Part shown: positions 16,277-59,006 of the stretch, piece by piece
Layout of the letters: each line of letters starts with the position of its first letter
How positions within the stretch are numbered: the stretch's first letter is position 1
DNA from: an uncultured bacterium
Lineage (GTDB): Bacteria > Oederibacteriota > PGYV01 > CAWJRG01
NCBI GenBank assembly: GCA_963845185.1
Contig: CAWJRG010000005.1
Span: forward strand, 1 to 64,000
DNA: 64,000 nt
Direction of reading: 5' to 3'
Notes under the pieces: generated by a model
Told to the model about the DNA's origin: nothing
Seen by the model: only the letters and a program-made list of their open reading frames with translations
Databases searched by the model: none
Program-made: the position numbers and the translations under genes

Positions 16277-16330
16277 TGTAAAATACCCTCCTTAGAATCC
16301 GTTGATTTTGCCAAGCGTCATGTTCTGCCT

Positions 16331-16833: not shown

Positions 16834-16934
16834 GCTAAAAATACAACCTGCTATGTTAGAGAGGAATTTTAAATAGGTTTACTAATAAATATACTGTAAT
16901 GGTTAGTATTTTAATTGTAATTTAAATTTTATAA

Positions 16935-17819
16935 TTAAAAGCTAATTTTACATGCTTGAGTTTGGGAAGCCACCCAGAAAGTATCGGTTGCAACCCAATC
17001 AATGCCAAAAGTCTTGAGAGAACTGCCCAGTAAATATATTGCGTCTATAGTTCCGGAAGTGCTCATCTTGTAGATATAACCGTTAGTATTATCATAAGAT
17101 GACAGCCAGAGATATCCATCACCGCCGTATGTTATACCCCAATAATAACCTCCGTTATATGGTTGTTGCACTGAGAACCCGCCAAGAGAAGTGCCTGTAG
17201 TTGAATATTTAACGCATTGCCAGTTATAGGAAGTATCTAAATATAGCACCCACATATTTGTTCCATCGTATGCAATCCTGAAATAGTTCTCAGTTGTAAT
17301 CGGTTTATTAAAACTAGCCTTTGCAGTCCCGGTGATGTCATTGCTGTCATAAGCCTTAAAATAAGCAGCATACCCGCTCGTTACTGTTGAATACCAGAGC
17401 CAGTTATTCGTTTTATCCACCGCCATTCCATCTATCATAGGTGCAGTTGTTGAAAAAAGCGAATTTCCGGAAGAATCATATTTTACAAAATATGCACAGG
17501 CTGACTCCTCGGATGCCCATATATTTCCATCTGCATCCTGAACGATTGCCGAAGTTGCTGAACCGCATGTGCTCGTATTTACTGAAAAACATGTTTTCGT
17601 GATCAATGCAGAAACATCCGTTATCTGGAGAGTCGGAGTGATTGTAGCAGTCGGAGTGGCAGAAACTATCGGACTTATTGTTGCACTTAAAACAAGTGTA
17701 CTTGTTGGATTAGTATCGGAATTTGTCGCAGAATTGTGTTTTTTAGTGCATGCTAAAATTGAAATCAGACATAATAAAATTATGAACACATAAGATAAAA
17801 CATCCCTTATTTTGTACAT
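16935..17819 (-). CDS. Lipoprotein with Thr/Pro linker and probable beta-propeller domain
   Basis: Lipobox ILAC, TPTATITPT linker, repeated blade-like segments (DGNIW, YDGTNMW, DGYLW). Confidence 0.7.
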   Translation of the reverse strand: MYKIRDVLSYVFIILLCLISILACTKKHNSATNSDTNPTSTLVLSATISPIVSATPTATITPTLQITDVSALITKTCFSVNTSTCGSATSAIVQDADGNIWASEESACAYFVKYDSSGNSLFSTTAPMIDGMAVDKTNNWLWYSTVTSGYAAYFKAYDSNDITGTAKASFNKPITTENYFRIAYDGTNMWVLYLDTSYNWQCVKYSTTGTSLGGFSVQQPYNGGYYWGITYGGDGYLWLSSYDNTNGYIYKMSTSGTIDAIYLLGSSLKTFGIDWVATDTFWVASQTQACKISF

Positions 17820-17877
17820 AATACTATACCTCCTCTATCTGATGCAATTATAACACAATATTGCCATAAATCAACGT

Positions 17878-20800: not shown

Positions 20801-23014
20801 TTCGGACAGTTCCAGCTTACAGCAAAAGAGCCTGCATTATTGGAATATATTGGTATTAAAGGGTCTCCCTGCATATTCATTTCCAAAACTCCGGTACGGG
20901 CAATCCCACGAAGAGTTAATTCACCAATGGATGAATTAATAAAACTATTTTTACCCGCAGTATATAAGCTTCCAGACGTATAATAAAAGTAATCATCTTC
21001 ATGGGAAGAAACATAATTAAACAAATTTTGGACATATTGAGCATAAGCAGTAACAAAATTTGAACCCAGAGTTCTGCTTGCACCAATAAAAGTCACAAAA
21101 CCGCCATTCAATGATTTTATGAAATTTTCAGAAATAGAAAATGATGTATTATTTGCAGTTGCATACGAAGCTCCAAAATCGAAAGCTCCTGATTCACAGC
21201 TTGAATTTAAACAAACGCCGCTAAATCTTCCGTTGGAATTCAATCCATATGCATCTGCTTCCTGCATCCATGGCCCTCCTCCTGAGCATGTCCCACTAAT
21301 AATGGTATCCTGCGAGTCAAGACACCATACTGCACCAGAACCATGGTTATTTACGAGTACAACATTGTATCCTGAATTCAAATAAGCTTTCATATTACTT
21401 AGCGTATCGGGTGCATTTGCATTATAGACAGTACCCGGATTATTGGCGTCAATTACAAATTGTGCATCACAATTATATACTTTATTTATGTTGAGATAAC
21501 TTGGAAACCAAGTATTCCATTGATTGACGTCACCGTTTGAAATATCCTTTGTTCCCATCTGGCAAAACTCCTGTGTGGAAACACCTGGTGGGTCAATGGC
21601 AGTATCTAATACTTTGTTAAAGTAATCATTATGCGTATTTTTTTCATATGCGATCGTTTTTGAACAAAAATTCTGGACTTCAGTTATATTTATGGCATCA
21701 GCCCGTCCTAAATTCAGGTTTATCGTCCAATACGGCAATAATGTCGGATCAGAAGTAGTACTGGCTGCCGGTTCATAACAATCATAATGCGTATTAGCCC
21801 CCAAAACCGATGGATTGTCAGCATAATTTCCCTGCAATATCCATTCCAATTCCACCGGGCTACCATTCAAGGTTACCAGTTGCAATCCGGAACAATAATA
21901 AAAATCCGTTGGCCCAGGATAAAAAACAGGATAAGACATATTCATATATTTTGTTGGCACAACATCAACATCCCCACCCAACAACACGTACTGCGTTCCA
22001 CAATTCCTGTACATGTCCTTTAAAAATTCACGAATTTTCTGTGAGGATTGAGTCGGGGCTTGATAATCCTGCACACCACTATATTTACTATTACTATAAA
22101 TATATTCAGTAGTAAAAATAGCAGTTGTAATTCCTTCTTTTAGCCTCCAGTTCGCCAATTGTTGGAAGGCAGGTACAAAATCTTTTTTTGTAACAATTAC
22201 GTATTCGAATAATCCGGGACTGGTGCTGCTAAACGTCGGATTTACAGGGACGTCAATCCTGGGAATAAAAATATCGTTGCCATTTTGCGAATATGAATAA
22301 CTGCTGCTCTTATCAACCAATACCTGTGGCGATACTTTATAATTATCAACGTCAGAAGGATTAATTACCTCTTCCTTTATTTCATTATCCTTTTTATTTT
22401 GTGAGTCCTTTGCTCTTAGTTGCAGGGGAGACAGACTATAAGTATTTTGAGTCTGGATGTCAAAATTGACGCCAGTGACAACGTTAACCTGGCCAGAGCT
22501 TGGAATGTATTGCAGCAAATAAAGTTTTATATAACATATATTATAACAACCTTCTTCATACTTGTTCCCGAACGACCTAATATTATTTGCCGGATATTGC
22601 GAAGAAGAACCATATATGCTTGCATCAGGCGGAACAAAAGTAGGGAGGGTATAATTGCGCAAATCCTGCAAATCGTGCTGAATCGGATATAAGTAATATG
22701 TACCTGTCAATGCTTGCGTAGTAATATTATTTATTGTAACTCCCGTGACAATTTGCCCGTTTGGAATTATTACCTTCAATACCTGGTAAGGCACACTTGG
22801 GGCACCAATTAATCCACTGTCATCAGTTTCAAATTGATTGTCGTTACCCAATCCTTTAACTGAAATAAAATCATAAGCGGTGGCATTAACATTTTCTTTT
22901 GCATAAATTTAGATTATTGGGATCAAATGAATAACTAAAGGAAAGACCTTGAGAGAAAAGAAAGGAATTGAGGACAAATACCAAAAACGAAACGATTGGA
23001 AAAATTTTTTTCAT
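17878..23014 (-). CDS. Large secreted gingipain-like C25 peptidase with prenyltransferase/squalene-cyclase-like repeats, CBM3-like domain and C-terminal Ig-like domain (frameshift near 22905)
   Basis: GGAGG plus ATG at 23014 gives signal peptide MKKIFPIVSFLVFVLNSFLFS. C25 motifs YVLLGGDVDVVP, HG and SC; QNSNGSW/QNSDGSW repeats; DQSNDYSF; NFPNP..NGVYILRV tail. Confidence 0.85.
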
Positions 23015-23246
23015 AATAACCCTCCCGTTTTATAAAATTATCTCTCCGTATGTTTCAAAAAATTTGATGTTAATAAGTTTACAGATTATTTCCAATTTGT
23101 CAAGAAAAAAAAATGTATAGAGTTCGGGAGTTTGGGAGTGTGGGGTATTGTTTATTCCAGTGGAATATCCAACGGTGAGAGTCTGTAAAAAATATATAAT
23201 AAGTATTTCTTTACCAGGAACGGATAAGGGTACAGTATTTTACTCT

Positions 23247-25147: not shown

Positions 25148-25229
25148 CTTTAAAAATTCTCATATGCTCCCTCCCCGAAGCGCTATCAAATCCCGTCTTT
25201 ACAAAGGCGGGTTTTTCGCGGAACGGGAT
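25148..25229 (-). repeat. ~82-bp structured leader element, copy 1
   Basis: Closely matches 34520-34602; internal hairpin conserved with a different loop. Confidence 0.85.
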
Positions 25230-25270
25230 AAAAAAGGAAACCCGGGCTCCTGATTTAAACGAGCCCGGGT
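25230..25270 (-). terminator. Intrinsic terminator in the typA leader
   Basis: ACCCGGGCTC-loop-GAGCCCGGGT followed by TTCCTTTTTT on the minus strand. Confidence 0.7.
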
Positions 25271-26816: not shown

Positions 26817-29043
26817 ATGGATAAAATCAAGAAACTGGTTGAAAACATCCAGACAGAGCGGTTTTTCCGTGGGCAGATAAAAGAAGTCGCGGAAATAAAG
26901 GCAGTCGAGCCAGGTTATTCAGCTGAAGACCTTGCCTTCCCTGACCATTATTAAAAAATACCTTGAAAAATCTAGCATAGAAAAACTTTACATACACCAG
27001 GCAAAAACAATAGATCAATCTAAGGCATGGTAAAAACGTAATTATAACCACGCCTACTGCCTCTGGTAAAACCCTTGCTTTTAACATCCCTGTCTTTGAA
27101 AAACTGGCAGAAGACAAGCAGGCCACAGCACTTTACATATATCCGGCAAAGGCGCTCTCAAACGACCAGTTGAAAATGATAAATGAAATGCAGGATTTTT
27201 CCGGTTTCAAGTTCGACGCAGGCATTTATGACGGTGATACGCCTTCTGAAGAAAAAAAATTCATCAGGGAAAACTCCCGTATTATAATAACAAATCCTTA
27301 TGAGCTCCATCAGGTCCTTTCCTATCACGCGAAATGGAAAAGCTTTTTCAAAATTTAAAGTTTATCGTGCTCGACGAGGCTCACAGGTACAAAGGAGTAT
27401 TCGGCTCAAACATAGCTTTTCTGATACGGCGCTTAAAGCGCGTAATAAAATCATACAACGCGAGCCCTGTGTATGTTGTATCGAGCGCGTCTCTTGCCAA
27501 CCCCGTGGAATTCATTGAGAAACTTACAGGAGAAAATTCCTGCTTGTGGATAAAAATGGCTCGCCATCGGCCAAAAAATACCTTGTTTTATGGGATTCCT
27601 CCATGGCCCCTGAGAAATCCGTGCATACCCAGACAAAGGATATACTTTTAAGCACATGCTAAAAGCGGGTTCCAATCCCTTGCCTTTACCACTTCCCGGC
27701 GCATGGCAGAGCTTATCAGGATGTGGGCAAACCAGGAGGACAAGAGCGTAAATATACTCTGTTACAGGGCAGGCTATTCGCCCGAACTGCGGCGTGATAT
27801 AGAAAAGCAGCTAAAAACAGGTGAAATAAAAGGTGTTGTTTCCACAAACGCGCTTGAGCTCGGCATAGACATAGGCCAGCTTGATATAATCATAATATCC
27901 GGTTACCCCGGCAGCATTACGTCCTTCTGGCAGCAGGCAGGCAGGTCAGGCAGAAAAATGCATGAATCCGGTATTTTCTTTTTGCCTTTTGAGGACGCGC
28001 TTGAAAAATATCTGCTGCGCCATTCTGAAATACTTTTAAACATGCATTTTGAGAACGCCATAATATCCCTTGAAAACCCGAATATCCTGATAGGCCACAT
28101 ACTCTGCGCCCTGACCGAAGCACCGTCAAAGACAAAGGAAATCTTTGAAGGCATAGATACGGATAAACTAATCGACACCCTTGTTGAGCAGAAGGTCGTA
28201 AGCGAAACTCCCCGCGGATATATATATTCCGGCGGCTCCAGGCCGCAGGACGTGGTGTCGCTCGACAACATCGGCAGCAGCGACATAAAAATTAAGGTGG
28301 ACAATAAAATTCTTGAGACCATATCAATGGAACGCGCTTTCAGCGAAGCGCATGAAGGCGCAATGTATTTGCATAACGGCGAGACCTATGTGATAAAGGA
28401 ATTAAATATTGAGGAAGGCATCGCCAAAGCCGCAAAAGAGGATGTGGAGCATTATACTGACTCCCTGAAAGACGAGGAAGTCAAAATACTCGAGACAAAA
28501 AAATCAAAAGATTTCAAAAACTTCAAGCTGAATTTCGGCAGTGTTTCAGTGACCGAGATATACAAGGCATACAGGATAAAAAAAGGCGGCAAAGTACTGT
28601 CGCAGGAAGATTTGCGCCTGCCTCCGCTGACTTTTACCACCGAGGCATTATGGATGGAACTGGATGGCTCGATAGAAAGCAAAATAAAAAATGCATTGTT
28701 TGATTTTGACGGCGCGATACACGCGACCGAGCACTCCCTGATAGCGCTCTCCCCTCTTTTTGCCATGTGCGACAGGAACGACATAGGCGGCAGGTCATAC
28801 CCTTCATACCCGGATAATGGTTCTTCAATGATATTTATTTACGACGCCTACGAAGGCGGCATAGGCATAGCCGAAAAGCTGTATGATATTTTCCCGGCCC
28901 TTGCCTCGAATACTTATGACATGGTCAAGACCTGCGGATGCGAATCCGGCTGCCCTTCCTGCGTGTATTCTCCCAAATGCGGCAATAACAACAACCCGAT
29001 AGATAAACTCGGCGCGATTTTGATGCTGGAGGAACTGCTATGA
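26817..29043 (+). CDS. mrfA: YprA/MrfA-like DEAD/DEAH helicase with C-terminal DUF1998 (several apparent frameshifts 26950-27700)
   Basis: PTASGKTL, LDEAHRY, STNALELGIDIG, QQAGRSGR, YDAYEGGIG, CGCESGCPSCVYSPKCGN spread over shifting frames. Confidence 0.88.
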
Positions 29044-29139
29044 TAGCGTTTGTTTTGTTGCGCCGTCAACAGGCGATAACAAAACATTACGCTATCTTGT
29101 ACCCGCTCCAGTCCTGAGCTTGCGAAAGACAAGCGGTAC
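29041..29139 (+). repeat. Two-hairpin intergenic element, copy A
   Basis: GATAGCGT..ACGCTATC stem plus GTACCCGCT..AGCGGTAC stem; overlaps the mrfA stop codon. Confidence 0.9.
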
Positions 29140-29315
29140 TAAATATAATTCCCCCTTTAACAAGGGGGCAAAGGGGGTTTGCTTTAATCTCCTGAAGTAG
29201 CGGAGCGCTTGAGCTCCATTTCGATTGCTGTCTTCATTGAAAATTGACAATTCTTAATTGATAATTACTGCGACCACCACACGTCGCTATAATAAGTGCC
29301 GTTTTTTACCTTAAA

Positions 29316-29747
29316 TTATAATCCCCCGCCGGCGCAGGGCACCCAGTGTGAATCTATGAGCGTCCCGGAAGAACCTATAGTTATGGCGTGCGTGGAACCC
29401 AGCGTCGCGGAAAAAGTGCACCACTTGATATAATTACCTGAATAGCCGTTGACATATACGTCATATAAATTCGTTGCGGGTATTATGACACTTACATTTG
29501 CCGAAGTGCCTGCTGTTATCGAACAGCTCTGCGAATAACTGCTTGAATCTGAATTGCGTATCAATTGCACGGAAATTGCTGTTTTGGTGCCCGTATCGTT
29601 GTTTGTGACGCTGAATTTGACGTAATTGGGGGTTTGGGTGGGTGCCGGCCCTGATGATGTGGGTGACTTTTTGCTGCAACCGATGTTAAACAGGCCCAAA
29701 ACAATAAAACAACAAACAACAAAAAAAACTGCAGTAACTTTTTTCAT
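29316..29747 (-). CDS. Small lipoprotein of unknown function
   Basis: GGAGG RBS, signal peptide, IGC-SKKSPT, beta-rich mature part. Confidence 0.75.
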   Translation of the reverse strand: MKKVTAVFFVVCCFIVLGLFNIGCSKKSPTSSGPAPTQTPNYVKFSVTNNDTGTKTAISVQLIRNSDSSSYSQSCSITAGTSANVSVIIPATNLYDVYVNGYSGNYIKWCTFSATLGSTHAITIGSSGTLIDSHWVPCAGGGL

Positions 29748-29761
29748 TTTAAAGCCTCCCT

Positions 29762-29859
29762 TGATTTCGTTTACTTTGCCAAGCCGTCAACAGGCGCAGG
29801 CAAAGTATTACGAAATCATGTACCCGCTCAAGTCCGGGCTTCACAAGGACAAGCGGTAT
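29762..29859 (+). repeat. Two-hairpin intergenic element, copy B
   Basis: GATTTCGT..ACGAAATC and ACTTTGCC..GGCAAAGT compensatory variants; second hairpin conserved. Confidence 0.9.
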
Positions 29860-29883
29860 TGTTTAATTTACTATTTAAAACCC

Positions 29884-31383
29884 TTACGGGTGGAATACTT
29901 CGATTCTGTTATTACCCTGGTCAGCTACATACACATTTCCGCTGCTGTCCACTGCTATAAGTTCAGGAGAAGAAAATTGCCCGATTCCGCTTCCGGTGCT
30001 TCCCCATTGTGATATGTATGTCCCGGTACTGCTGAATTTTTGGACATTGTTATTGACTTCATCTACAACATACACGTTACCGTTGCTGTCCACTGCCACT
30101 CCCTGAGCATATTCAAATTGCCCGTTGCCGGTTCCTTTGCTGCCCCATTGCGTTAAGTATATCCCAGTATTGCTGAATACCTGTATCCTGTAATTACCAT
30201 AGTCTACGACATACACATTTCCGCTGCTGTCTAATGCTATTCCTTCGGGACTGTTAAACTGCCCGTTGCCGCTCCCTGAACTGCCAAATTGTGCCATATA
30301 TGTACCTGTGCTGCTAAATTCCTGGACCCTGTTATTATTCTCGTCTGTTACATAGACGTTGCCGTTGCTGTCCATCGCCACTCCACTTGTATAGCCGAAC
30401 TCCCCATTTCCGTTTCCGGCATTCCCCCATGCAGTTATATATGTGCCTGTGCTGCTGAATTCCTGGATTTTGCTATGCCCCCAATCTGCGACATATACAC
30501 CATTATTGTTTACTGCTATTCCAAAAGGAAAATAAAACTGCCCGATCCCGCTTCCATTGCCGCCCCATTGTGTTATATATGCCCCTGCATTGCTGAATTT
30601 TTCAACCCTGTAATTGCACCTATCGGTAACATATACATTTCCGCTGCTGTCCACTGCTACTCCGCTTGGGCAGTTAAACTGTCCGTTGCCGGTTCCATAA
30701 CTGCCCCATTCCCTCACAAACATCGCGGACATAGTTGCTGTTGCGTTGGGTGTCGGCGCCGTTGCTGTAGAAGTAGTTGTCATTGTGCTTGTCATTAACG
30801 CCGTTGTCACTGTCTGCTGAGCCGTGATTGTCCATGTCTCATTTGCCGTAATTGTTGCGGTTAAAGTATTAGTGATTGTTACGGTGAATGTATTTGTCAT
30901 AGTATGCTGTGCCTGCGCAGTGGCTGTTTGTTGCGCCGCTATTGTCTGCGTCTCGTTTACCGTATTTGTTTCGGTGAAAGTACTTGTCGCTGTTATAGTG
31001 AATGTATTGGTTAAGGTATGTTGAACCTGTGCTGTTTCTGTCTGCTGCGCCTGGGCTGTTTGTGTTTGTTGTGCCTGAGCAGTAGCTGTCTGCTGCGCCT
31101 GTGATGTGGCCGTCGCCTGTGCGCTCGGCCCTGCTGTCTGCAAATACGCGGCTGTGGCAGTTGCCGCCGCGATTTGTGTCTGCGTGGCAATTACTGCCGC
31201 AGTCGCTGTCGCCTGCGCACTCGGCCCGGCTGTCTGCAATGCTATGGCTGTCTGCGTTATCTGCGCGACTGCCGTGGCAGTGGCATTGCCTGCCTGGTTT
31301 GGTACGGTCGGGGATGCCAGTTTCCTCGCGCATGCGTAAAAGATAATTCCAATAACAAGCAGCAATAACAGAATTTTTTTCAT
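29884..31383 (-). CDS. NHL-repeat 6-bladed beta-propeller lipoprotein with Thr/Ala/Gln stalk
   Basis: YAC lipobox, TATAQAQQ repeats, six ~47-aa WGSxGxGNGQF..GVAVDSSGNVYV.D repeats. Confidence 0.92.
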   Translation of the reverse strand: MKKILLLLLVIGIIFYACARKLASPTVPNQAGNATATAVAQITQTAIALQTAGPSAQATATAAVIATQTQIAAATATAAYLQTAGPSAQATATSQAQQTATAQAQQTQTAQAQQTETAQVQHTLTNTFTITATSTFTETNTVNETQTIAAQQTATAQAQHTMTNTFTVTITNTLTATITANETWTITAQQTVTTALMTSTMTTTSTATAPTPNATATMSAMFVREWGSYGTGNGQFNCPSGVAVDSSGNVYVTDRCNYRVEKFSNAGAYITQWGGNGSGIGQFYFPFGIAVNNNGVYVADWGHSKIQEFSSTGTYITAWGNAGNGNGEFGYTSGVAMDSNGNVYVTDENNNRVQEFSSTGTYMAQFGSSGSGNGQFNSPEGIALDSSGNVYVVDYGNYRIQVFSNTGIYLTQWGSKGTGNGQFEYAQGVAVDSNGNVYVVDEVNNNVQKFSSTGTYISQWGSTGSGIGQFSSPELIAVDSSGNVYVADQGNNRIEVFHP

Positions 31384-31398
31384 TTTCGCCTCACATTT

Positions 31399-32805
31399 TT
31401 ACGGATGGAATACTTCGATTCTGGCATTATTACTGTCTGCAACATAAACGTTTCCGCTGCTGTCTACTGCCACTCCCCATGGGCAATTAAGCTGTCCATT
31501 GCCGCTTCCCAAACTACCCCATTGTGTTATATACGTCCCTGTACCGCTGAATTTTTCGATTCTGTCATTATTATAATCTGAAACATACACGTTACCGCTG
31601 CTGTCTACTGCTACTCCCACAGGATAATTAAACTGCCCATTACCGGCTCCTGCGCTGCCCCATTGTGTTATATATGTTCCTGTGCTGCTGAATTCCTGTA
31701 TGTTATTATTATCACCGTCTGAAACATAAATGTTGCCATTGATGCTTACTGCTATTGCGGTGGGCTGAAGAAATTGCCCATTGCCTCTTCCATTAGTTCC
31801 CCATTGTGATATATATGTGCCCGTACTGCTGAATTTCTGGATATTGTCAGTAAACGAGTCCGCAACATATACGTTGTCACTGCTGTCTACAGCTATTCCT
31901 TTAGGCTCATAAAACTGCCCATTGCCGATTCCAAAACTACCCCATTGTGTTATATACGTCCCTGTACCGCTGAATTTTTCGATTCTGTAATTATCATAAT
32001 CTGCAACATATACGTTCCCGCTGCTGTCTACTGCCACTCCCCATGGCCAATTAAACTGCCCATTACCGGTTCCTGCGCTGCCCCATTGTGTTATATATGT
32101 GCCTGTACTGCTGAATTCTTGGACCCTGTTATTAATATAATCTGTAATATATACTCCATTACTGTTTACTGCTATTCCGGTAGGATAAATAAACTGACCG
32201 TTGCCATTTCCGCTACTTCCCCATGCAGTTACAAACATTGCAGTCATGGTTGCTGTTTGTTGCGCAGCCTGGGCTGTCGCTGTTTGTTGAGCCTGTACAG
32301 TTGCTGTCTGTTGCGTCTGCACCGTGGCTGTCATATTAGGCGTATTTGTGGATGTTGGCGTTGCTGTTATAGTAGTTGTAATTGTTGAAGTATGTTGCGC
32401 TTGGGCAGTGGCTGTTTGCTGCGACTGAGAAGTTGCTGTTTGTTGTGCCTGCGCTGTTGCTGTTTGCTGCGCCTGGGCAGTTGATGTCTGTTGTGCTTGG
32501 GCTGTTGCTGTCTGCTGCGCCTGCGCAGTGGCTGTTGCCTGCGCAGACGGCCCGGCTGTCTGCAGATACGCAGCTGTGGATGTCGCCACCGCTTGCTGCG
32601 TAGCAGTAACCTGAGCCTGTGCGGTCGCCGTTGCCTGTGCGCTCGGTCCGGCTGTCTGCAAAGCTATGGCTGTCTGGGTTATTTGCGCGACTGCCGTTGC
32701 AGTGGCGTTGCCTGACTGGTTTGGCATGGTCGGGTTTTTTAATTTCCTCGCGCATGCGTATAGGATAACTCCTAAAACTAGCGTCAATAATAAAATTTTT
32801 TTCAT
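31399..32805 (-). CDS. NHL-repeat 6-bladed beta-propeller lipoprotein (paralog)
   Basis: Same architecture and same RIEVFHP end as 29884-31383. Confidence 0.92.
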   Translation of the reverse strand: MKKILLLTLVLGVILYACARKLKNPTMPNQSGNATATAVAQITQTAIALQTAGPSAQATATAQAQVTATQQAVATSTAAYLQTAGPSAQATATAQAQQTATAQAQQTSTAQAQQTATAQAQQTATSQSQQTATAQAQHTSTITTTITATPTSTNTPNMTATVQTQQTATVQAQQTATAQAAQQTATMTAMFVTAWGSSGNGNGQFIYPTGIAVNSNGVYITDYINNRVQEFSSTGTYITQWGSAGTGNGQFNWPWGVAVDSSGNVYVADYDNYRIEKFSGTGTYITQWGSFGIGNGQFYEPKGIAVDSSDNVYVADSFTDNIQKFSSTGTYISQWGTNGRGNGQFLQPTAIAVSINGNIYVSDGDNNNIQEFSSTGTYITQWGSAGAGNGQFNYPVGVAVDSSGNVYVSDYNNDRIEKFSGTGTYITQWGSLGSGNGQLNCPWGVAVDSSGNVYVADSNNARIEVFHP

Positions 32806-32832
32806 ATTTATACTCCTTTTTAATAATTTTCA

Positions 32833-32926
32833 ATACCTCTTGTCTTTAGCAAGCTAAAGACTTGAACGGGTACTTGATAGCGTAATATTTTGTTATCGCC
32901 TTCGGCTCAACAAAATAAACGCTATA
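32833..32926 (-). repeat. Two-hairpin intergenic element, copy C (inverted)
   Basis: Reverse complement reads ATAGCGTTTATTTTGTTGAGCCGAAGGCGATAACAAAATATTACGCTATCAAGTACCCGTTCAAGTC..GACAAGAGGTAT. Confidence 0.9.
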
Positions 32927-32962
32927 AGTTTTCAGTTTTCAATTATCAATGAAAAACCAACC

Positions 32963-33685
32963 TTAATTAATAATTATTTTATAAGTTACCACGACCTGAC
33001 GATTTTGCGGGTCAATTCCGGCCGTCACAGGAAATGCGGCGTGGATGAAAAGCATGTCCGCCAGGGTATATACCACCGCAACGCCTGTAATAGCGCCGAA
33101 TATTTCATAAGTAGTAAACTTATTTTCGGTTGAAGTTTTTATGCTCATAAGCGAATTATAATTATCCATCGTGGTATTATCAATCTGCGCATAGGTGTTG
33201 TTATAACTATTCACCGCGTTATTATAATTCATGTAATTGGATATTGAAAAGCCGGCCAATACGACATCTGCTCCCAGCACTACCCATTTAAAAGGCGAAT
33301 CGTTTGGCTTGCCCGCAGCCGTGGACATTGCCGCAGGCGGCATTGTAATTTCCTGTGTTTCAGCCTGCGCGCCGCTTGTTGCCTTAATGTTGTCAATCTG
33401 CGACTTTAGACTATCGTCACCCGTAAGCTTATATGCTTTATTAAGATATTGAAGGGCTTTGGCAGGGTTATTTAAAGACATATACGTATAGCCGCCGTAA
33501 GTAAGCGCGTCTGTGTTCTTGGGGTTGATTTTTAACACGGTATCATAGGCAGACGCAGCTTTGCTGTAATTCTGATTTTGATAGCATTTATTGGCGTAAT
33601 CCAACCATTGCTGTTCGAGGGATTTTGATGATATTAAGAATGGGACAAATATAAGCGGGATTAACATCAGCGCGGTTTTTTTCAT
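32963..33685 (-). CDS. Secreted TPR protein with C-terminal membrane-associated region
   Basis: Signal peptide, two TPRs, two hydrophobic C-terminal segments; GGAGG RBS. Confidence 0.75.
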   Translation of the reverse strand: MKKTALMLIPLIFVPFLISSKSLEQQWLDYANKCYQNQNYSKAASAYDTVLKINPKNTDALTYGGYTYMSLNNPAKALQYLNKAYKLTGDDSLKSQIDNIKATSGAQAETQEITMPPAAMSTAAGKPNDSPFKWVVLGADVVLAGFSISNYMNYNNAVNSYNNTYAQIDNTTMDNYNSLMSIKTSTENKFTTYEIFGAITGVAVVYTLADMLFIHAAFPVTAGIDPQNRQVVVTYKIIIN

Positions 33686-33803
33686 CCCTTTTGTCCTCCT
33701 TGCTTTGTTGTTGTTTGCTTAACTCTTAAACACAATTATACAGCATTAAAGCTGCTTTTACAAGGTTATTTCGGGAATTGTGTTGTTGGATATGCGCTTT
33801 ATC

Positions 33804-33919
33804 GTACAGACGGCCCTGCGGGTCGTCTGTACATTAACCGCCCTAAATCCCCTTGTTTTCTCCATTCGTAGAGAGGCGGCTTGCCATGAACCGAAATGAT
33901 ACATGGCTTGCGGCCTCTC
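33804..33919. repeat. Pair of REP-like palindromes
   Basis: GTACAGACGGCC..GGTCGTCTGTAC (33804-33832) and GTAGAGAGGCGGCTTGCCATG..CATGGCTTGCGGCCTCTC (33868-33919). Confidence 0.65.
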
Positions 33920-33971
33920 GTTTTTACTGTTAATGGGATTTCTGTAATTCCGTTTGTTTTGCCGGCTAATA

Positions 33972-34229
33972 TTACCTTTTATTGATAATACGCGCTATAA
34001 TAACCGTATTGTTTTTTTCACGCTCAAAATATATAGCCGTTGAATGAATTACACAACAAAAAAAATCAGCCTTTACTCTATAAGTATCTTCATATTCGTC
34101 CATTGGCCTGTTTCGCCTGCTTAATTCGTCATAAATAAACTCATGAACCTGCTTTTTTAACTGGTTATGCAGGGCCGCCAAATCCAGCCCTGCCTGGTCT
34201 GTTATCATTACAAGATTCATTGCAGACAT
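33972..34229 (-). CDS. Putative RelE/ParE-like toxin
   Basis: 85 aa, 1-nt overlap with upstream small ORF, weak RelE-like pattern (ITDQAGLDL..YRVK..IYF..VIIARI). Confidence 0.45.
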   Translation of the reverse strand: MSAMNLVMITDQAGLDLAALHNQLKKQVHEFIYDELSRRNRPMDEYEDTYRVKADFFCCVIHSTAIYFEREKNNTVIIARIINKR

Positions 34230-34468
34230 TAAACTTTTAGCCCTATCTTTTTCGCAAAATCGGAATAGCCGGTTGCGGTTTTTTTGCCGTGTTTGATATA
34301 TTCCTCATAAATCATCAGGTCTTCTTTCATGGTTTCACGCTCAATTTCATGGGTTATGGCGTTTCCTAAAAACGCGTATATCTTAATTCCGTGCTTTTCG
34401 CAGAAATCACGCATTAAATCCCTTTTGTCGTCCTCAATCTTCGCTGCAAATGGAACTACTTTAGGCAT
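34229..34468 (-). CDS. Putative antitoxin (ribbon-helix-helix-like)
   Basis: 79 aa, AGGAGG RBS, N-terminal strand plus helices, YSDFAKKIGL tail typical of RelB-like partners. Confidence 0.5.
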   Translation of the reverse strand: MPKVVPFAAKIEDDKRDLMRDFCEKHGIKIYAFLGNAITHEIERETMKEDLMIYEEYIKHGKKTATGYSDFAKKIGLKV

Positions 34469-34519
34469 TTTTAATCACCTCCTGGATTGTGGAGCCCCCC
34501 GCCTTTACAGGCGGAGCGC

Positions 34520-34602
34520 CTTTAAAAATTCTCACATGCTCCCTCCCCGGAGCGCTATCAATCCCGCCTCAACAACAGGCAGGGTTTTTCGCGGAGCGGG
34601 AT
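34520..34602 (-). repeat. ~82-bp structured leader element, copy 2
   Basis: Closely matches 25148-25229. Confidence 0.85.
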
Positions 34603-34624
34603 GAATTTCTTTCTTAATATAATA

Positions 34625-34672
34625 ATTGTATCATAAATAATTTTATTATCAAGAACTAAAGTAATACTTTAG
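34625..34672 (-). promoter_or_regulatory. Promoter and palindromic candidate operator of the TA-like operon
   Basis: TTGATA-16 nt-TACAAT with extended TG; perfect inverted repeat CTAAAGTA-A-TACTTTAG at 34656-34672. Confidence 0.55.
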
Positions 34673-34709
34673 TATCATTTTTACCCGGACAGCATTGGCC
34701 GCGGCGAAA

Positions 34710-34833
34710 CATGGTCAAAACCTGCGAATGCGAATCCGGCTGCCCCTCCTGCGTCTACTCCCCCAAATGCGGCAACAATAACAACCCGATAGATAAACTT
34801 GGTGCGATTTTGATGCTGGAGGAACTAACATGA
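34710..34833 (+). pseudogene. Duplicated 3' fragment of mrfA (last 40 codons)
   Basis: Aligns without gaps to 28920-29043; translates MVKTCECESGCPSCVYSPKCGNNNNPIDKLGAILMLEELT*. Confidence 0.92.
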
Positions 34834-34924
34834 TAGCGTTTATTTTGTTTAGTCGAAAACGACGACAAAATATTACGCTATCATGTACCCGCTCAAGTCC
34901 GGGCTTCACCCGGACAAGCGGTAT
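34831..34924 (+). repeat. Two-hairpin intergenic element, copy D
   Basis: GATAGCGTTTATTTTGT..ACAAAATATTACGCTATC-ATGTACCCGCTCAAGTCC..GGACAAGCGGTAT. Confidence 0.9.
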
Positions 34925-34948
34925 TGTTTAATTTATTATTTAAAGCCA

Positions 34949-35344
34949 TCATGGGTGGAATTTTTCAATTCTGGTATTACCATCATCCGAAACATATACG
35001 TTCCCGCTTCCATCCACTGCTATTCCATCAGGCCCATTAAACTGCCCGTTACCGCTTCCTGCACTTCCCCATTGTGTTATATATGTCCCACTGTCGCTGA
35101 ATTCCTGAATTCTGCTATTTAAAGTATCTGCAACATACACGTCTCCGCTGCTGTCCGCTGCTATACCCCAAAGATCATAAAACTGCCCGTTGCCAGTCCC
35201 CTGACTTCCCCATTGCGTTATATAACACGGCGGCGAATCAGCCATGGCATGGGAATTTATTATGAAGATAATAAGGATTATGAATATTGGGCTTAAAAAT
35301 TTTTTCAATTGCCGCCTCAGATTCAAATAATTTTTAATTTTCAA
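34949..35344 (-). CDS. Short secreted protein with two NHL repeats
   Basis: Hydrophobic N-terminal segment, two WGSxGxGNGQF repeats, RIEKFHP end; start uncertain. Confidence 0.75.
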   Translation of the reverse strand: MKIKNYLNLRRQLKKFLSPIFIILIIFIINSHAMADSPPCYITQWGSQGTGNGQFYDLWGIAADSSGDVYVADTLNSRIQEFSDSGTYITQWGSAGSGNGQFNGPDGIAVDGSGNVYVSDDGNTRIEKFHP

Positions 35345-35397
35345 TTCTCAATGTTGTCAATTAACTGCTTTTAATTGAAAATTGAAAACTTTTAACT

Positions 35398-35491
35398 CAT
35401 AGCGTTTGTTTTGTCAAGCCGAAGGCGCTGGCAAAACATTACGCTATGAAGTACCCGTTCAAGTCTTGAGCTTGCTAAAGACAAGCGGTAT
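35398..35491 (+). repeat. Two-hairpin intergenic element, copy E
   Basis: CATAGCGT..GCCGAAGGC..ACGCTATG-AAGTACCCGTTCAAGTC..GACAAGCGGTAT. Confidence 0.9.
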
Positions 35492-35498
35492 TGGTAAT

Positions 35499-38400
35499 TT
35501 ATTTCACTACCGCCATCTTTCCCCAAGCTTTTTTCTTGTCCTTGCCGTCCGCTGCCTCTATCCTGTAAATATATATTCCGTTTGCCACTGCCCTGCCAGA
35601 TTTATTATTTCTGTCCCAGTATATGCTGTTCATACCCGGCTCGCCCTGCTGCGTTATTTCCCTCACAACCTCGCCGCTTATTGTGTATATCTTTACATTT
35701 ATTTCTGCCGCGTCGCATAACTGATAAATTATATTTGTGCCGTTTGAAAATGGGTTCGGCGAATTTTTATATAAAGTCAGGCAAAGCGGTATTACCGGCG
35801 TAGGCGTTACTGTTATTGTGCATGTTATGCTTGGCGTGGGTGTTGGTGTTTTTGTATTTATATTTGGCGTAGGGCTTATGGTCAAAGTCCACGTCGGGCT
35901 GACTGTGGCTGTTGGAGTCGGCATAATACCCAGGCAATATGCAGGCGGCAAAGAGAACAGGCCAACCTGGTTGCCGCTGCAGGCATAAACGTGAAGGTTT
36001 GACGGGTCTATATTAATGGCAATGCCGCTGCCGCTGTTTAACGGATAGCACTTGTAAAGGAATGTCCATGGAGTTGTGGATTCGTCGAAAACATTCCATC
36101 CCCCGCTCTCGTCTGCCACGTGCACGCGCGTAGAGCCGGGTTCATAGAACATGTAGGTGGGCCTGAACCCGGGCGAAGAATAAACCGTGGCGTCATAGGA
36201 GTAATGCACGCCGTCCGTGGTCGTCCAGCGCACTATGCGGTTGTTCCAGTCATCCGCCACGTAAACTGTATTGCCCTGCGCCAACACGCCAAAAGGATTA
36301 TCAAACTGGTTGGTCCCTGACCCTGTAACCCCTGTTGTCCCGAAAGAGGCCACCTGGGTAAAAGTATTGACCGGATTCTCGTGGTACCGCCGCACCGTGG
36401 CCCGGTCAGTCACATAAACATCACCGCCATTGTCCACGCAAAGTGCCAGCCCGCCCCACAGGTCGCCGCCAAAGGAAGCCATTACAGCGCCTGTTGTGCT
36501 GTTCATTTTCAGTATGCTGCTCCCGTTTATGCAGGCCGCGTACAACGCGCTGTTATCCGGGCTTAATCCAAGCGCAAGCGGGTTAGGAAGGCCGTAAGGT
36601 GTTCCGGTAAATGCCGCGACCCATGCTCCGGTAGCGGCATTGAACTGGTTAATGCGGTTATTGCCAAAATCAGAAACGTAAAGATAGCCATTTCCTGCAG
36701 CAGGCCCGCTGGCGCCGTTGAACTGGCCGTTGCCCGTTCCTGCGCCGTTCCCGTAGGTTTGCACCGGGTTAAAGCAAGTGCAGGGTATGGGAACGGGCGT
36801 GGGCACTGTGCCGGGAAACGGGCTCCAGTAAATAAGTACACGCGACCTGTCAGGGTCGGTCATGAAAAGGTTGCCGTTGCTGTCAAAAACCTCGGAGTAA
36901 GCGCCCATGGACTGGAAATCATTCATGTAAGCCGAAGGCACGTCAAACTGGGTTAAAGGGTTATAAAAACCAACCGGCCAGCGCGAACCGACATAACCCA
37001 TGGTACCAACAGTCATCACCATGTCGTCGCTGCGGAAAGCAGGCTGCCATGGCCCGCACGGGCTCAGGCTCTGGAGGCTAAAGGGGTAACATCCCACAGG
37101 CCCAAAATTCCCGTTCTTTGCATAGACATGGGAAGCCGCTACATTAAAAATGCAGTTAGCCGTTGTGTTTTGCACCGAAGCCGCGCTGTACTCCAGGAGC
37201 CTGGCGTTCCCGTTTGACTCCAGGGAAAAATCCGAAACATATATATTCCCGTGGTGATCCATGGTTACGGCGCCCGGAAGATTCAGGGTATAGGCGCTCT
37301 CCACCCCTCCCTGATTTATGGCATTGGAAACAGCATCAGGTTGCCCCAGGATGATGTCCACCTGCGGGCTTGTAAGCGGGTTCCGGATACGGATAACACG
37401 GTTGTTCATGGTGTCGGCAAGCCAGAGATATTGCCCTGTTGGGTCCACCGCAATACCTTGCGCACTCCATGTTAAAGAGCCTCCCCCAAGCACTGGAACC
37501 GACGAGTTAATGACCGCCGACCCGGTTTGCCATGATACCAGCGGCAGGTTGTAAGTCTCCACCCAGACACCACCGCCGTTTGCATGTAATGTCCAGAGAT
37601 GCGGCTGGGGCGACGCAGAGTCCGTGCAAATACGGCCGAACCAGTCTCCGGCGAAATAAAGATACGTGGATGGAGTCGTGGCTGCAAAGCCGTCCGCGGC
37701 TTTACCGTTGGTCAATCCCAGAGAAGGTTGGTTCGTGTAGTCCAGGTTCCAGTACATCAGCCTGTGGCCGTCTGCGGCGATGAGCTGCGTAATTCCCGAA
37801 CCCGAGCCGATCGCCAGTCCCAGGGCGCCTACAGTATAGTTCGACACATGGTTGCTCATGCCTCCCGCACCCGGGTTTTGTTGCGGTTTGAATACATCCA
37901 CATCCGGCGCATGCGCCTCGCCCGCGTTTGGAAGATTGACAGTATAAATCCCGCCTGAATAATTCAGTCCCGGTATGGGAGCCGGATAGCGCAGTACGTC
38001 TATCATGGGGTCCATGAAGCTCACGAAAACATTTCCTGCCGAATCCACTCCTATACCGCCCCAGTTGTCATGAAAATATTCCGGGCACTGGGAGCAAAGC
38101 GTACTGCTGGGCGGAGATGTGTAATTGGTGAAATCCGGGCCGTCCGCGCTGGTTGGGTCAACTGCTGCTCCGCTGCCCGGATAAAGCTGGTAACGCAGCA
38201 AAAGTTTTAAAGGTGTGGCAGTTGGAGGCGTGGTTGAGAAATCTATATTGTATTCTATGACCTGGGTGTTCAACGAATCAGCCACCCATAAATTGCCTGA
38301 AGGGTCAAACTCAAGACCTGTCGGCCGGTTCAGGCCAAAGGTAATGACACCATCGGGAATTTGGCCGTTATTGTATTGAGGCACCCCATTAACTATAGAA

Positions 38401-39415
38401 ACCGGCTTAAAAATAAGTACCCGGCCGCCCTCAATCCTTGTCCCTGTCGGCGGCGGATCGTCTGACACAAAAACATTGCCGTTTGGGTCTACCCTTATTG
38501 AACCCGGGTAGTAAAAATGTGACAAGTCCTGGTCGTCCGTAGCCGGCACCCCGGTCTGGCCCAAAATCAGGTCTGCGGTCGTTGAGGGTAAGCCCGGGTT
38601 TGGAGCATTGGGGTTTGGGAACCTCAAAACCCGCAAATTTCCCGTATCAGTCACCCAAAGGTTCCCCACGCTGTCTATGGCCACGCCGGCATTCAAAATA
38701 CCGCGCTGGTTCATAAAAGATAATGTACTGTTTGCAGGCGCCCCTCCCTGGTTTGGCCTGTAACTTGTGAAGTCAGGCTGGCCCCAGACGTATGAGGCTG
38801 CTTCGTTGGTGTAGGTCGGTGCATTATATCGCAGGATACGGTTGTTATAATAATCAGGCACATAAAGGTTTCCCTGGTAATCCACTGCCAACGTGGCGTT
38901 CGAGCCTGATTCTCCCGGCGAGACCACTCGCGGGTCCAAAGGCACAGGCTTGAAGCCGTGGGATTCGGGAGCGGGTCTGTGCTGGAAAGATAAGCTCCAA
39001 ATGGGAAACCCGGGAAGTTCTGAAGCTGGCAGTCCCCGTTGGCGTAAGCGTGGTTGAAGTCTGCCTGTCCCAGGACAATGTCCGCGCCAAAACCCTGAGC
39101 CGCGTTCAGGTTGGGCGTGAAGTTATTGATGTTGCTGAAACATAAAATCCTGTTGTTGCCTGAATCGTACACGTATAACCTCTGCGGATTGGAGACACGG
39201 TCCACAAACACGCCGCCGGGCCTGTTCAGGCGCATGTTGTCCACGTAAAAGCTGTTCATGGCAGCAAAATCATACTGACCCAGCACTACATCTGCCCAGA
39301 GGTCGCCTGCCACGCCCCGTACAGGCGCAGGAAAAATATTGCCGCAGAAATAAAAAGGCAAAATTATTAAATACAGGAGGAATAAAAAAATTTTATAAGC
39401 TTCGCGTTTTCTCAG
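35499..39415 (-). CDS. Large secreted multi-NHL-propeller protein with TPT linker and C-terminal Ig-like domain (frameshift near 38940)
   Basis: ORFs 38711-39499 and 35499-38945 join; ADVVLGQ.DF repeats, NNRILR blades, NSPNPF..NGIYIYRI..KMAVVK tail. Confidence 0.85.
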
Positions 39416-41090: not shown

Positions 41091-42704
41091 GAGTCTGTCT
41101 CAAAACTCTTTTAAACGCCTTGCATTGCCTACACTTATCGCGTTTTTTAGCCCCTATCTTTATTATTTCTCTTCTTTTCGATTTGTGGTTCTTTTCTTGT
41201 CAGGTTGCGAACCTTAATTTAACCTTACCTTCCCTCCACAAGGCATACATTGTCTTTATGTTATGGGCGGCGCATATAAAAGACCATTGTGTTTTTACGC
41301 TTTCGATTCCTCTAACATTAAATCTTGTAAAACCAAGTACGTTTTTTATACGTCCCAATAATGGCTCAACTATTGTTTTTCTCTTTCGAAGCTGTTCTTT
41401 TCAGTTATTGACCCTAGCTTCTTCTCTGTATATTGACACTATCTCCTCATACTCATGCTTATTTGCTTCTATTATCCTTCCGGATTTTACCTTGCTGCAT
41501 TCGTATTTATAAATACAATCCCTATGATCCCCGCATCGGTATATCATTGTCTCTTTTCCGTTTTTCTTCTTCCTTATACTGGTATATTCAAGCCTGCCAT
41601 TTTTAGGACATACATATTCGTTTTTTTCTTTGTCGTATTTAAAATGCGCTTTGCCATACGGCCTATCGCTGTCATCCTCCGGCAAGTTAACAATTATATT
41701 CCTTTTTTCTTCTTTGGCTTTTGCCAGTTCTTCCGGTGAATAATACCCTCCATCCGCAAGCGTTACTCCTGATTTTTGTCCGGTATTCGACTCTGCTTTT
41801 TCTATCATATCATTCAGCATGTGAGCATCCGATTCCTTGTTTGTCACATTCTCTGCCACAATTATCTGTTTCTTTGCGTCCACAACAACCTGTGAGTTAT
41901 ATGCCTGTTGCAGTCCTTTACCTCTTGTCATCATGAACCGGCTGTCTCTATCTGTGGGGTTTTCAGTTGTTTTTCCTTCACTTTTCATACGTTCTATATG
42001 TTCTCTTATTACCTGACGCAGTTTCTCCTTTTCCTGCAATTCTTTTGGCATTCCGCACTTACTTTTGCCCTCTTCATCGTCTTGTTCGTCATTTTTCTCA
42101 ATTTCCACCATTATTTTGTCTATTTCTCTGTCTAATTCTTGTATTTTTTTATTCATGTCTTTTATTGTTTTGGTCTTTTCCTTATTTACATCTGCCTGTA
42201 TTTTTGTGCCGTCCACGGCTTGAATTTCAAAACCAACCAAATTGTTGTTTGTTGCCACACGCACCGTCTCCTTCAGTAAAACCCTTATCTGCTCTTTATT
42301 TCCTTTAAAAAATCTCCATAGCGTATTATGGTCGGGATGATTATTCCCGGTTATCCATATCATCCCCATTGAATCGTAAGTCATTTTTTCAACTTTTCTG
42401 CTGCTCTTTTTTCCTTCCAGTATGCCGTACATCCATGCCCCAAGTAAAAGATCTACAAAATATCCCGGTCTTCCGGTTTCTTCTTCCATTTTAAAACCCA
42501 TCTCTTCAAGCGGTAATTCTTCTACGAATTCTACGACAAATCAAGCTAAATGATCTTTTGAAACCCAATCTTCTATTGCCGGTGGCAGTAGATACATTTG
42601 ATTTCTATCGGCTCTTATCGTTGGCATTTGGTTTCTCCTTCGCTAAATTTTGAAACCATTATACCATTTATGTCAAAGAATTAAGAGGCTTTTGAGACAG
42701 ACTC
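41091..42704 (-). mobile_element. IS1182-family insertion sequence, copy 1 (1614 bp)
   Basis: 15-bp terminal IR GAGTCTGTCTCAAAA, 4-bp target duplication CTTG, near-identical to 60881-62494. Confidence 0.92.
41200..42627 (-). pseudogene. IS1182 transposase with two nonsense mutations
   Basis: CGA>TGA at 42543 and TGG>TGA at 41401 relative to the intact copy. Confidence 0.85.
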
Positions 42705-58856: not shown

Positions 58857-58869
58857 AATTGATCTCCTT

Positions 58870-58968
58870 TGATAGCGTTTATTTTGTCAAGCCGAAGGCG
58901 CCGACAAAATATTACGCTATCATGTATCCGATCAAGTCCGAGGCCGCAAAGCCGAGGACAAGCGGTGC
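58870..58968 (+). repeat. Two-hairpin intergenic element, copy F
   Basis: GATAGCGTTTATTTTGTC-AAGCCGAAGGCGCC-GACAAAATATTACGCTATC-ATGTATCCGATCAAGTCC..GGACAAGCGGTGC. Confidence 0.9.
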
Positions 58969-59006
58969 TGCTATTCTTGTTTGCTCTATTGCTGTCCAAA
59001 GAAATT

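Follow-up and report, generated by a model that had tools for sequence, protein, structure and literature searches.

A dispersed two-hairpin repeat among duplicated NHL surface-protein genes of an uncultured bacterium

Several described systems place short hairpin-forming DNA between bacterial genes. Repetitive extragenic palindromes (REPs) are palindromes of 20-40 nt with a GTAG/CGTC tag, according to an excerpt of PMC3733652. The Neisseria REP2 repeat and a Borrelia plasmid inverted repeat are longer (120-150 nt); PMC3184786 describes them as lacking terminal inverted repeats (TIRs), having two internal stem-loops and lying immediately upstream of unrelated genes, and it presents REP2 with its own promoter, ribosome-binding site, and ATG. 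Here, we describe an element of ~100 nt with two unlike hairpins in a stretch of 64,000 nt from an uncultured bacterium (contig CAWJRG010000005.1, positions 1 to 64,000; G000:C5:1-64000 in our numbering), hereafter the window. The genome, G000, comprises 3.50 Mb in 11 contigs and is rated 99.4% complete. The initial annotation of the window had proposed that five copies of this element, A to E, delimit a gene-cassette array of surface-protein genes with integron-like logic. We find that these five belong, as its local members, to a family of ~180 copies dispersed through the genome. The region itself is probably a patch of a duplication-prone NHL gene family that carries the repeat, with copy D having arisen by duplication and recombination rather than within a cassette array.

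How does this element compare with the known systems? REPs, bacterial interspersed mosaic elements (BIMEs), and REP doublets forming hairpins (REPINs) resemble it in being high-copy extragenic hairpin repeats without target duplications, often in tandem and inside transcription units, and in being substrates for repeat-mediated rearrangement. It differs from the REP/BIME elements and their REP-associated tyrosine transposases (RAYTs) in its length of ~100 nt, in its two unlike hairpins, and in occupying a genome without Y1_Tnp; Y1 genes do not track the element either. REPs are not known to lie at a fixed distance of 3-4 nt from Shine-Dalgarno sites. Neisseria REP2 is similar in having two internal stem-loops and no TIRs and in sitting immediately 5' of genes, but our element has its Shine-Dalgarno sequence outside the repeat, its copy number is ~7-fold higher, and its folding strand is antisense to the downstream gene. 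The attC sites of integrons are likewise imperfect hairpins between genes with a ribosome-binding site close by, and one copy of the element, D, looks like the product of an exchange. In both, the strand that folds is the one opposite to the coding strand of the genes and serves as leading-strand template, as PMC5371416 describes it for attC. In contrast to integrons, IntI, attI, and R''/R' cores are all lacking; there are two hairpins instead of one, and the copies are spread genome-wide, not in one array. The palindrome-associated transposable elements of the IS200/IS605 family share with it the subterminal hairpins, the lack of TIRs and target-site duplications, and a fixed CCTCCTTTG 5' of the left hairpin. 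They differ in that this genome is without TnpA (Y1) or TnpB and that no long gene-carrying form was found in it. The folding-strand bias of IS608 and ISDra2 is, moreover, opposite to the placement of the element on the leading-strand template. Miniature inverted-repeat transposable elements differ too: the element is without TIRs and target duplication, and no parent insertion sequence (IS) with a gene between the hairpins was found. The closest relatives are thus REP/BIME-type cotranscribed repeats for the way it works, Neisseria REP2 for its position, and gene-less IS200/IS605 derivatives for the structure of its ends. Since it lacks what defines each of these, we file it as a new form of dispersed structured repeat, outside the named families.

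The structure of the element is well defined. Repeat finding and alignment delimit ~100 nt with two unlike hairpins and no gene of its own, and a covariance model (R1) was built from the window's five copies: A (29041..29141, +), B (29762..29861, +), C (32831..32930, inverted, -), D (34831..34926, +), and E (35398..35493, +). The five copies of ~95 bp first listed were recovered by repeat finding, by alignment, and by R1. Strong R1 matches in the window are exactly these and a sixth copy at 58871-58970 on the + strand (match span 58865-58980), in agreement with the earlier count of six. All six adopt the same two hairpins when folded (z between -5.6 and -9.4, equalled by 0 of 200 shuffles); the minimum free energy is -40.6 for A (z -6.2) and -45.6 for D (z -9.4). 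The covarying fold, another early claim, was recovered as well. Compensatory changes affect 10 of 37 pairs among copies A-E. In an alignment of 50 copies (46 distinct) from this genome and its relatives, which was fitted to R1 and is thereby biased towards structure, double changes occur at 28 of the 37 pairs and 92.3% of the cells are paired; this level was reached by 0 of 500 shuffles, and slid controls gave 11-17 pairs. Hairpin 2 has an outer stem conserved in sequence, a bulged C, an internal loop, and an apex of variable length and hypervariable sequence (100 distinct forms in 114 copies). Many of these apices have the form GTCC-GA-GGCC...GGCC-GA-GGAC. The covariance models of Rfam 15 gave no match at gathering score in the window and none at E ≤ 1 in 28800-35700.

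The family extends over the whole genome. R1 gave at least 142 matches at E ≤ 0.01, the best 150 of 906 candidates having been scored, and an iterated nhmmer profile gave 192 hits at E ≤ 0.01, 183 of them at E < 1e-3, on 7 of the 11 contigs. The density is about 1 copy per 19 kb. Throughout, the element is oriented with hairpin 1 before hairpin 2, as the initial annotation wrote it. With gene calls that are crude (longest nonoverlapping open reading frames [ORFs] of at least 90 codons), 117 intergenic copies are antisense to both neighbors and 9 are co-oriented with both; 21 copies lie between divergent genes, 11 lie between convergent genes, and 25 overlap a called ORF. The placement is strikingly precise. 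The left-flank consensus of the 111 full copies, CCTCCTTTG, is the complement of an optimal Shine-Dalgarno sequence. The hairpin-1 end is retained by 153 copies. In 87 of them, a Shine-Dalgarno sequence begins 0-6 nt from the edge of hairpin 1 (most often 3 nt), and it leads into a start codon with 50 or more open codons behind it. By the same criteria, the hairpin-2 side gave 0 of 165, and random intergenic positions gave 58 of 3000. This Shine-Dalgarno sequence belongs to the gene and not to the repeat, since it also occurs at two places that have no element, namely, a paralogue of the lipoprotein gene that A and B enclose and the BipA start in the window. The genes downstream are unrelated: they include a MocA-type oxidoreductase, an Orn/DAP decarboxylase, and toxin-antitoxin pairs. 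In the nearest relative, TypA/BipA and an rpsF operon gene are also among them. Secreted or surface proteins are not enriched among them (33 of 92 signal-peptide-like, versus 820 of 2715, by a crude rule). Promoter scans found no consistent match at the elements and no conserved promoter on the hairpin-1 side, and a terminator scan called hairpin 2 at none of the local copies.

Spacing between copies does not suggest regular units. There are 38 gaps of 300-4000 nt, against ~30.5 expected from random placement. Gaps below 300 nt are enriched (29 versus 2.7 expected), and 19 of these 29 are head-to-tail tandems. Six full copies and a partial one are lined up head to tail at G000:C9:916520-917180 with a period of 100 bp; hairpin 1 is nearly identical throughout and belongs to the subfamily of copy B, and two variants of the hairpin-2 apex alternate. 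A smaller tandem array lies at G014:C31:7613-7921. The densest other cluster of the genome, at G000:C9:669500-678500, has seven copies (671-677 kb), three of them doublets, and its copies precede small operons, including HTH+Fic/Doc, DUF6290+ParE, and an AbiEii fragment.

The family is lineage-restricted. The genome of the window stands alone in its family among the species genomes compared. R1 found the element in 10 of the 31 genomes of the order (E ≤ 1e-4), with 15 copies in one relative and 1-5 in the others. In the copies of these relatives, the sequence of hairpin 1 has changed and its pairing is kept, and the sequence of the outer stem of hairpin 2 is conserved. The exact hairpin-2 stem pattern occurs in 11 stretches of four assemblies and in no other record of a collection of 185,579 species, a scan that may leave out the records of the window's own genome; two of the four assemblies are of candidate division FCPU426. 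Neither Rfam nor the literature yielded an account of the repeat, in narrow searches that leave subscription journals uncovered and that gave, beyond Goldbacteria, only reviews of other repeats. A word search of the main Goldbacteria genome paper (PMC7031533) finds no mention of such an element, and "repeat" refers there to laboratory steps.

Comparison with the nearest relative, L031, points to rapid turnover. Its MrfA is 88% identical to that of the window at the amino acid level, and ~13 kb are syntenic with the window at 78-88% nucleotide identity. At the BipA site, L031 has a full copy and the window has 10 unrelated bases. In the rpsF operon, L031 again has a full copy, and an imprecise deletion of ~95 nt has left the window with only the left arm of hairpin 1. 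The remnant, 3' of rpsF at 16290-16330, consists of this arm and the adjoining CCCTCC. At the mrfA stop, the window has copy A and L031 has none; in L031 and in a further relative, L032, the mrfA orthologue has TAA as its stop and no element lies there, and synteny with both stops at the last mrfA codons, exactly at the left edge of A. Three differing sites within ~13 kb imply that the family has gained or lost copies recently. Such comparisons of filled and empty sites provide one clean case (BipA) and one imprecise deletion, too few to fix the insertion point. These features make the repeat worth attention: it is strongly structured, confined to one uncultured lineage, and subject to fast turnover between relatives, and it lies with near base-pair precision beside the ribosome-binding sites of unrelated genes in a near-complete genome with no recognizable transposase. 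A mechanism that targets such sites, if there is one, would have a bearing on the shaping of translation-initiation regions by small mobile DNA and on the part of repeats in the gain and loss of genes.

Copy D was compared with A and B. Two parallel arrangements had been reported, one with the 3' end of mrfA followed by A, a lipoprotein gene, B, and an NHL gene, and the other with the same 3' end followed by D and an NHL gene. Both are real. Positions 28919-29070 and 34709-34860 are 88% identical, the duplicated 3'-end fragment of mrfA (34660..34833, +) covers orthologue residues 685-740 at 70% amino acid identity and is 88% identical in nucleotides to 28919-29043, and it is detectable as protein over 34660-34827. 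The junctions of mrfA with A and of the mrfA fragment with D fall at the same base, which argues that A and D descend from one junction and not from two insertions. To the right, hairpin 2 of D is 95% identical to that of B, rank 1 of 113, and the match continues through the 23-nt spacer and the 3' end of the NHL gene. This is telling because the hairpin-2 apex is hypervariable. At informative sites, D agrees with A at 10 and with B at 4 in hairpin 1, and with A at 0 and with B at 10 in the linker and hairpin 2. D is thus a mosaic relative to A and B. The earlier claim of a hybrid stands for the A-type left flank and for the B-type hairpin 2 and right flank, but the outer stem that was called A-like, ATAGCGT, is common to A and D as the family consensus. 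Hairpin 1 of D is only 78% like that of A, with 19 other copies being closer, and its apex differs from that shared by A and B.

Could D instead be an independent insertion, similar to A and B by chance or through the family consensus? Seven of the 10 sites of hairpin 1 at which D equals A are consensus, and the best full-length matches of D (89% and 86%) are not A or B but copies elsewhere in the genome, on C9. However, such an insertion would have to meet a 125-170 nt mrfA fragment at the very base where A does, and to match B specifically in the hypervariable apex and the 23-nt spacer. We consider it highly improbable. Duplication is also seen elsewhere in the family. Copy E has a twin at G000:C1:208339-208828, to which it is 86% identical over 490 nt that include both flanks, and the only pair of distant copies that is 100% identical also has common flanks. 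The near-identical pairs examined share their flanks, and we therefore regard them as segmental duplications. Paralogues of the NHL genes occur at many loci, C1, C9, and C10 being among the matches listed.

We propose the following account. A typical copy lies between two codirectional genes and antisense to them, the end of its hairpin 1 being 3-4 nt away from the Shine-Dalgarno sequence of whichever gene is downstream, and several of the local copies would have been carried along by segmental duplication of NHL surface-protein genes. The starting arrangement would be mrfA-A-lipoprotein-B-NHL. A stretch containing the mrfA-3'/A and B/NHL junctions would then have been duplicated, and in the duplicate, A and B, as direct repeats at a distance of 721 bp, could have recombined, or the polymerase could have switched template between them. 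The exchange would fall within the block TGTACCCGCTC (the linker and the start of hairpin 2), in which A and B do not differ and which belongs to the best-conserved portion of the element family-wide. Through this exchange, the duplicated copy would have lost the lipoprotein unit. The initial annotation had foreseen a product such as D from an exchange between two elements, and the loss or gain of the 721-bp lipoprotein unit explains the flanks and the mosaic well. It had also named ordinary recombination between dispersed repeats as an alternative to cassettes, and this is the better reading. The family, its placement and structure, and the common flanks and junctions are direct observations. 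The order of events is inferred, and the reverse history, in which the unit was inserted into a D-like copy, is a less simple but possible alternative. Host recombination or slippage, rather than a dedicated recombinase, would have made the join.

Several points weigh against this account. Where the crossover is placed, A and B are identical over a block of just 11 nt, which is short for RecA-dependent recombination, so that slippage must be invoked. The apex of hairpin 1 in D, being unlike that of A and B, requires additional steps of conversion or divergence. The break of synteny with L031 exactly at the left edge of A is what one would see at a cassette boundary. Across the linker, Cramer's V is 0.19-0.21, versus 0.28-0.30 at similar distances inside hairpin 1 (null, 0.165 ± 0.01), and this loose linkage between the hairpins makes a preferred exchange point between them possible. 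The drop is compatible with frequent exchange at the conserved block, but it may also reflect the fast-evolving apex of hairpin 2. Finally, the turnover of the element at three loci in ~13 kb implies recent mobility, for which no enzyme is recognizable.

The two strands of the element differ in their capacity to fold. In the stems of 114 aligned copies, written hairpin 1 first, there are 197 G·U pairs versus 53 A·C pairs, the latter being G·U on the opposite strand. The excess is greatest in hairpin 2 (135 versus 21 A·C, summing the rows of the individual pairs). With RNA parameters, this orientation is the more stable in 84 of the 114 copies (mean, -40.7 versus -38.1 kcal/mol); with DNA parameters, it is so in 67. 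In our reading, tandem G·A pairs in the hairpin-2 apices are possible on this strand only. It is the C-rich strand in 167 of 183 copies, and 2280 of the 2715 genes (84%) are on the G-rich strand, which makes the folding strand antisense to most genes. Judging from the skew, it would be the leading-strand template. Strand mutation bias should favor A·C there, and hence the excess of G·U suggests selection. These data would suit folded DNA of this strand or an antisense RNA, and they are harder to reconcile with a plain 5' leader on the gene strand, although the transcript of that strand must still carry two strong hairpins. The orientation bias is confounded with gene orientation, given that 84% of the genes are on the leading strand. 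Both neighbors are on the lagging strand in 4 copies only, 3 of which follow the genes. What is new here is that the G·U-tolerant strand is antisense to the neighboring genes.

One rival explanation is a site-specific exchange of cassettes, in which the element would be the site of an unrecognized system acting on folded single-stranded DNA, swapping at the junction between hairpins and moving elements together with genes. The switch point of D does fall at the linker, the hairpins reassort across the family, and the architecture of hairpin 2 (bulged C, internal loop, variable apex) loosely recalls attC. For attC, PMC5371416 reports that the bottom strand is placed with respect to replication as the folding strand of the element is, in 25 of 30 sedentary chromosomal integrons; this is an analogy, not evidence of kinship, and on the side of the element, the orientation is fully confounded with that of the genes. 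The second cluster at C9:671-677 kb, before toxin-antitoxin pairs (Fic/HTH, ParE/DUF6290, AbiEii), and the break of L031 synteny at the edge of A also suit cassettes. However, no machinery for it was found. None of the 111 full copies, read in either orientation, contains the attC cores RYYYAAC (R'') and GTTRRRY (R') together, as the initial annotation had noted for the local sites. A search of the whole genome for integron integrase (TIGR02249) gave three tyrosine-recombinase loci, the best with 86 bits against a cut-off of 265; none is beside the A-E region and none is in the window, the latter again as first reported. The HUH/RAYT gene suggested as a companion of the element was not found, Y1_Tnp/RAYT (PF01797) having 0 matches in the genome. 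TnpB was not found either. Across the order, 5 of 10 element-positive genomes have Y1 genes, versus 17 of 21 element-negative genomes, and in one relative (G001:C140), a Y1 gene 2.7 kb from the element is not flanked by it. A gene-carrying long form, with a gene-sized insert between the hairpin halves, was not seen among 46 partial hits. The distribution of copies also speaks against cassettes. Single dispersed copies lie by core genes, spacings of cassette size are not enriched, and the 6.4-kb difference between the window and L031 at 16845-23243 has no element at its borders. The paralogue of the lipoprotein gene (G000:C9:844582-845010, 68% amino acid identity) has an element on neither side, and thus the lipoprotein gene does not travel with elements. 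The integron-like logic first proposed does not survive these results, with 183 dispersed hits, core-gene neighbors, random spacing, no integrase, and an element-free lipoprotein paralogue. Part of what had been named beforehand as arguing against an array was indeed seen, namely, the scattering of the element beside core genes (BipA, the ribosomal operon, the decarboxylase). We regard site-specific cassette exchange as unlikely. A more specific version, in which a folded single-stranded DNA system of FCPU426 places copies by CCTCC and exchanges genes at the linker without integron integrase, Y1, or TnpB, is less likely still. For the region, this corrects the first impression: what looked like an integron-like array is a group of dispersed repeats in a duplication-prone family of surface-protein genes.

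A functional RNA module is another possibility, although a rather unlikely one as the main explanation. Here the hairpins would act as a 5' leader or intercistronic stabilizer, or as an antisense or stand-alone small RNA, and the local cluster would reflect a common control of surface-protein genes. The strong covariation, the structure kept in the other families of the order despite the changed sequence of hairpin 1, the G·U excess that would run counter to the expected strand mutation bias, the greater stability as RNA, and the tandem G·A motifs in many hairpin-2 apices would all be accounted for. Lying 3-4 nt from the Shine-Dalgarno sequence, the element also implies that the gene-strand transcript must carry both hairpins. 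But only two of the six window copies abut a Shine-Dalgarno sequence, the downstream genes are unrelated and not enriched in secreted proteins, and close relatives differ in the presence of the element at orthologous core-gene sites. The absence of a conserved promoter on the hairpin-1 side, of a called terminator in hairpin 2 locally, and of any Rfam match also weighs against such a module, as does the fact that the favored strand is antisense to the genes it would lead. The duplication and recombination of a dispersed repeat that we favor does not exclude a role as RNA, with which it is compatible. Mobile repeats are often co-opted.

Other mobile elements were considered as sources of mobility. 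The genome is rich in insertion sequences, with 37 DDE_Tnp_1, 9 rve, and 7 IS110 matches. Mobilization by a DDE enzyme is argued against by the missing target duplications: a target-site duplication is seen in no more than 10 of 111 copies, whichever offset or length is considered, and these few cases probably stem from tandem copies. TIRs are also lacking, the best 12-nt terminal match averaging 6.8 versus 6.1 in shuffled controls. By their coordinates, the IS110 copies are not adjacent to the element. As for GIY-YIG enzymes, the genome has UvrC and one GIY-YIG gene of 91 amino acids by tRNA genes (C5:376452-376724), which no element flanks.

The gene content around the copies can now be described. 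The mrfA gene (26817..29043, +) encodes a DEAD/DEAH helicase with an MZB zinc domain, for which Pfam finds MZB and Helicase_C in the C terminus. Its C-terminal ORF (27703-29043, +; 446 codons) is intact and ends with a TGA stop at 29041-29043, which forms the first three bases of copy A. The N-terminal part of mrfA (26817-27352) appears broken, the 741-amino-acid orthologue of L031 matching frames 3, 1, 2, and 1 by tblastn; at least two or three frameshifts, or assembly errors, would explain this. Copy A is noncanonical: it abuts the mrfA stop and has no Shine-Dalgarno sequence on the side of hairpin 1. A terminator-like hairpin, found by pattern scan (29151..29168, -), lies 3' of the lipoprotein-like gene (29316..29747, -; 143 amino acids). 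Copy B is canonical, with the end of hairpin 1 at 3 nt from the GGGAGG Shine-Dalgarno sequence of this gene, and its hairpin 1 is a member of a 19-copy subfamily. Two tandem paralogous NHL-repeat propeller genes follow, of 499 (29884..31383, -) and 468 (31399..32805, -) amino acids, both identified by Pfam. Copy C, a match of R1 with the common fold, forms with ~30 nt of its left flank a 131-nt inverted repeat with copy E (86%). Next to it are a tetratricopeptide repeat (TPR) protein gene found by Pfam (32963..33685, -; 240 amino acids), two small overlapping ORFs of 85 and 79 amino acids (33972..34468, -), and a copy of a second, unrelated dispersed repeat of ~110 nt (34490..34610, by blastn). 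Copy D is followed by an NHL fragment of 131 amino acids with two NHL repeats (34949..35344, -), 66-67% identical to the C-terminal blades of the two NHL genes. Copy E lies 6 nt from the stop of a gene (35499..38945, -) for an NHL protein of 1148 amino acids with the C-terminal sorting domain of the type IX secretion system (T9SS), by Pfam. The sixth copy is canonical, with CTCCTTTG immediately to its left and CAT further left; within the window, only this copy and B are in canonical position. The gene labels first given hold in Pfam for the MrfA C terminus, the NHL genes, and the TPR protein, whereas the lipoprotein-like N terminus was judged by eye and has no family match. Of the "TA-like pair," a putative toxin-antitoxin pair, the overlapping ORFs exist, but the label is unverified, with no match in Pfam or NCBIfam.

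Some further observations concern other parts of the window. The second repeat family of ~110 nt gave 30 blastn rows genome-wide, with C5, C9, and C10 among the matches listed. Its other window copy is at 25148-25232, and one of the window copies, which sits next to the BipA terminator, is an insertion relative to L031. A third motif of ~35 nt, AATTGAAAATTGAcAATT-like and with a TTGACA-type hexamer, occurs at no fewer than 15 genome sites, in the window at 29232-29267, 32930-32955 (-), and 35372-35394, and it sits immediately left of copies C and E and of the C1 twin of E. The 6.4-kb segment at 16845-23243 that is absent from L031 encodes a 1657-amino-acid protein with Peptidase_C25, CBM_3, and a T9SS tail and a protein of 294 amino acids. 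Matches to the DDE_Tnp_1 transposase are found at 41257-41934, with an in-frame TGA, and at 61047-61724. Lastly, a short stretch of L031 (8177-8346) is 85% identical to G000:C10:314556-314725 and probably represents a further small repeat family.

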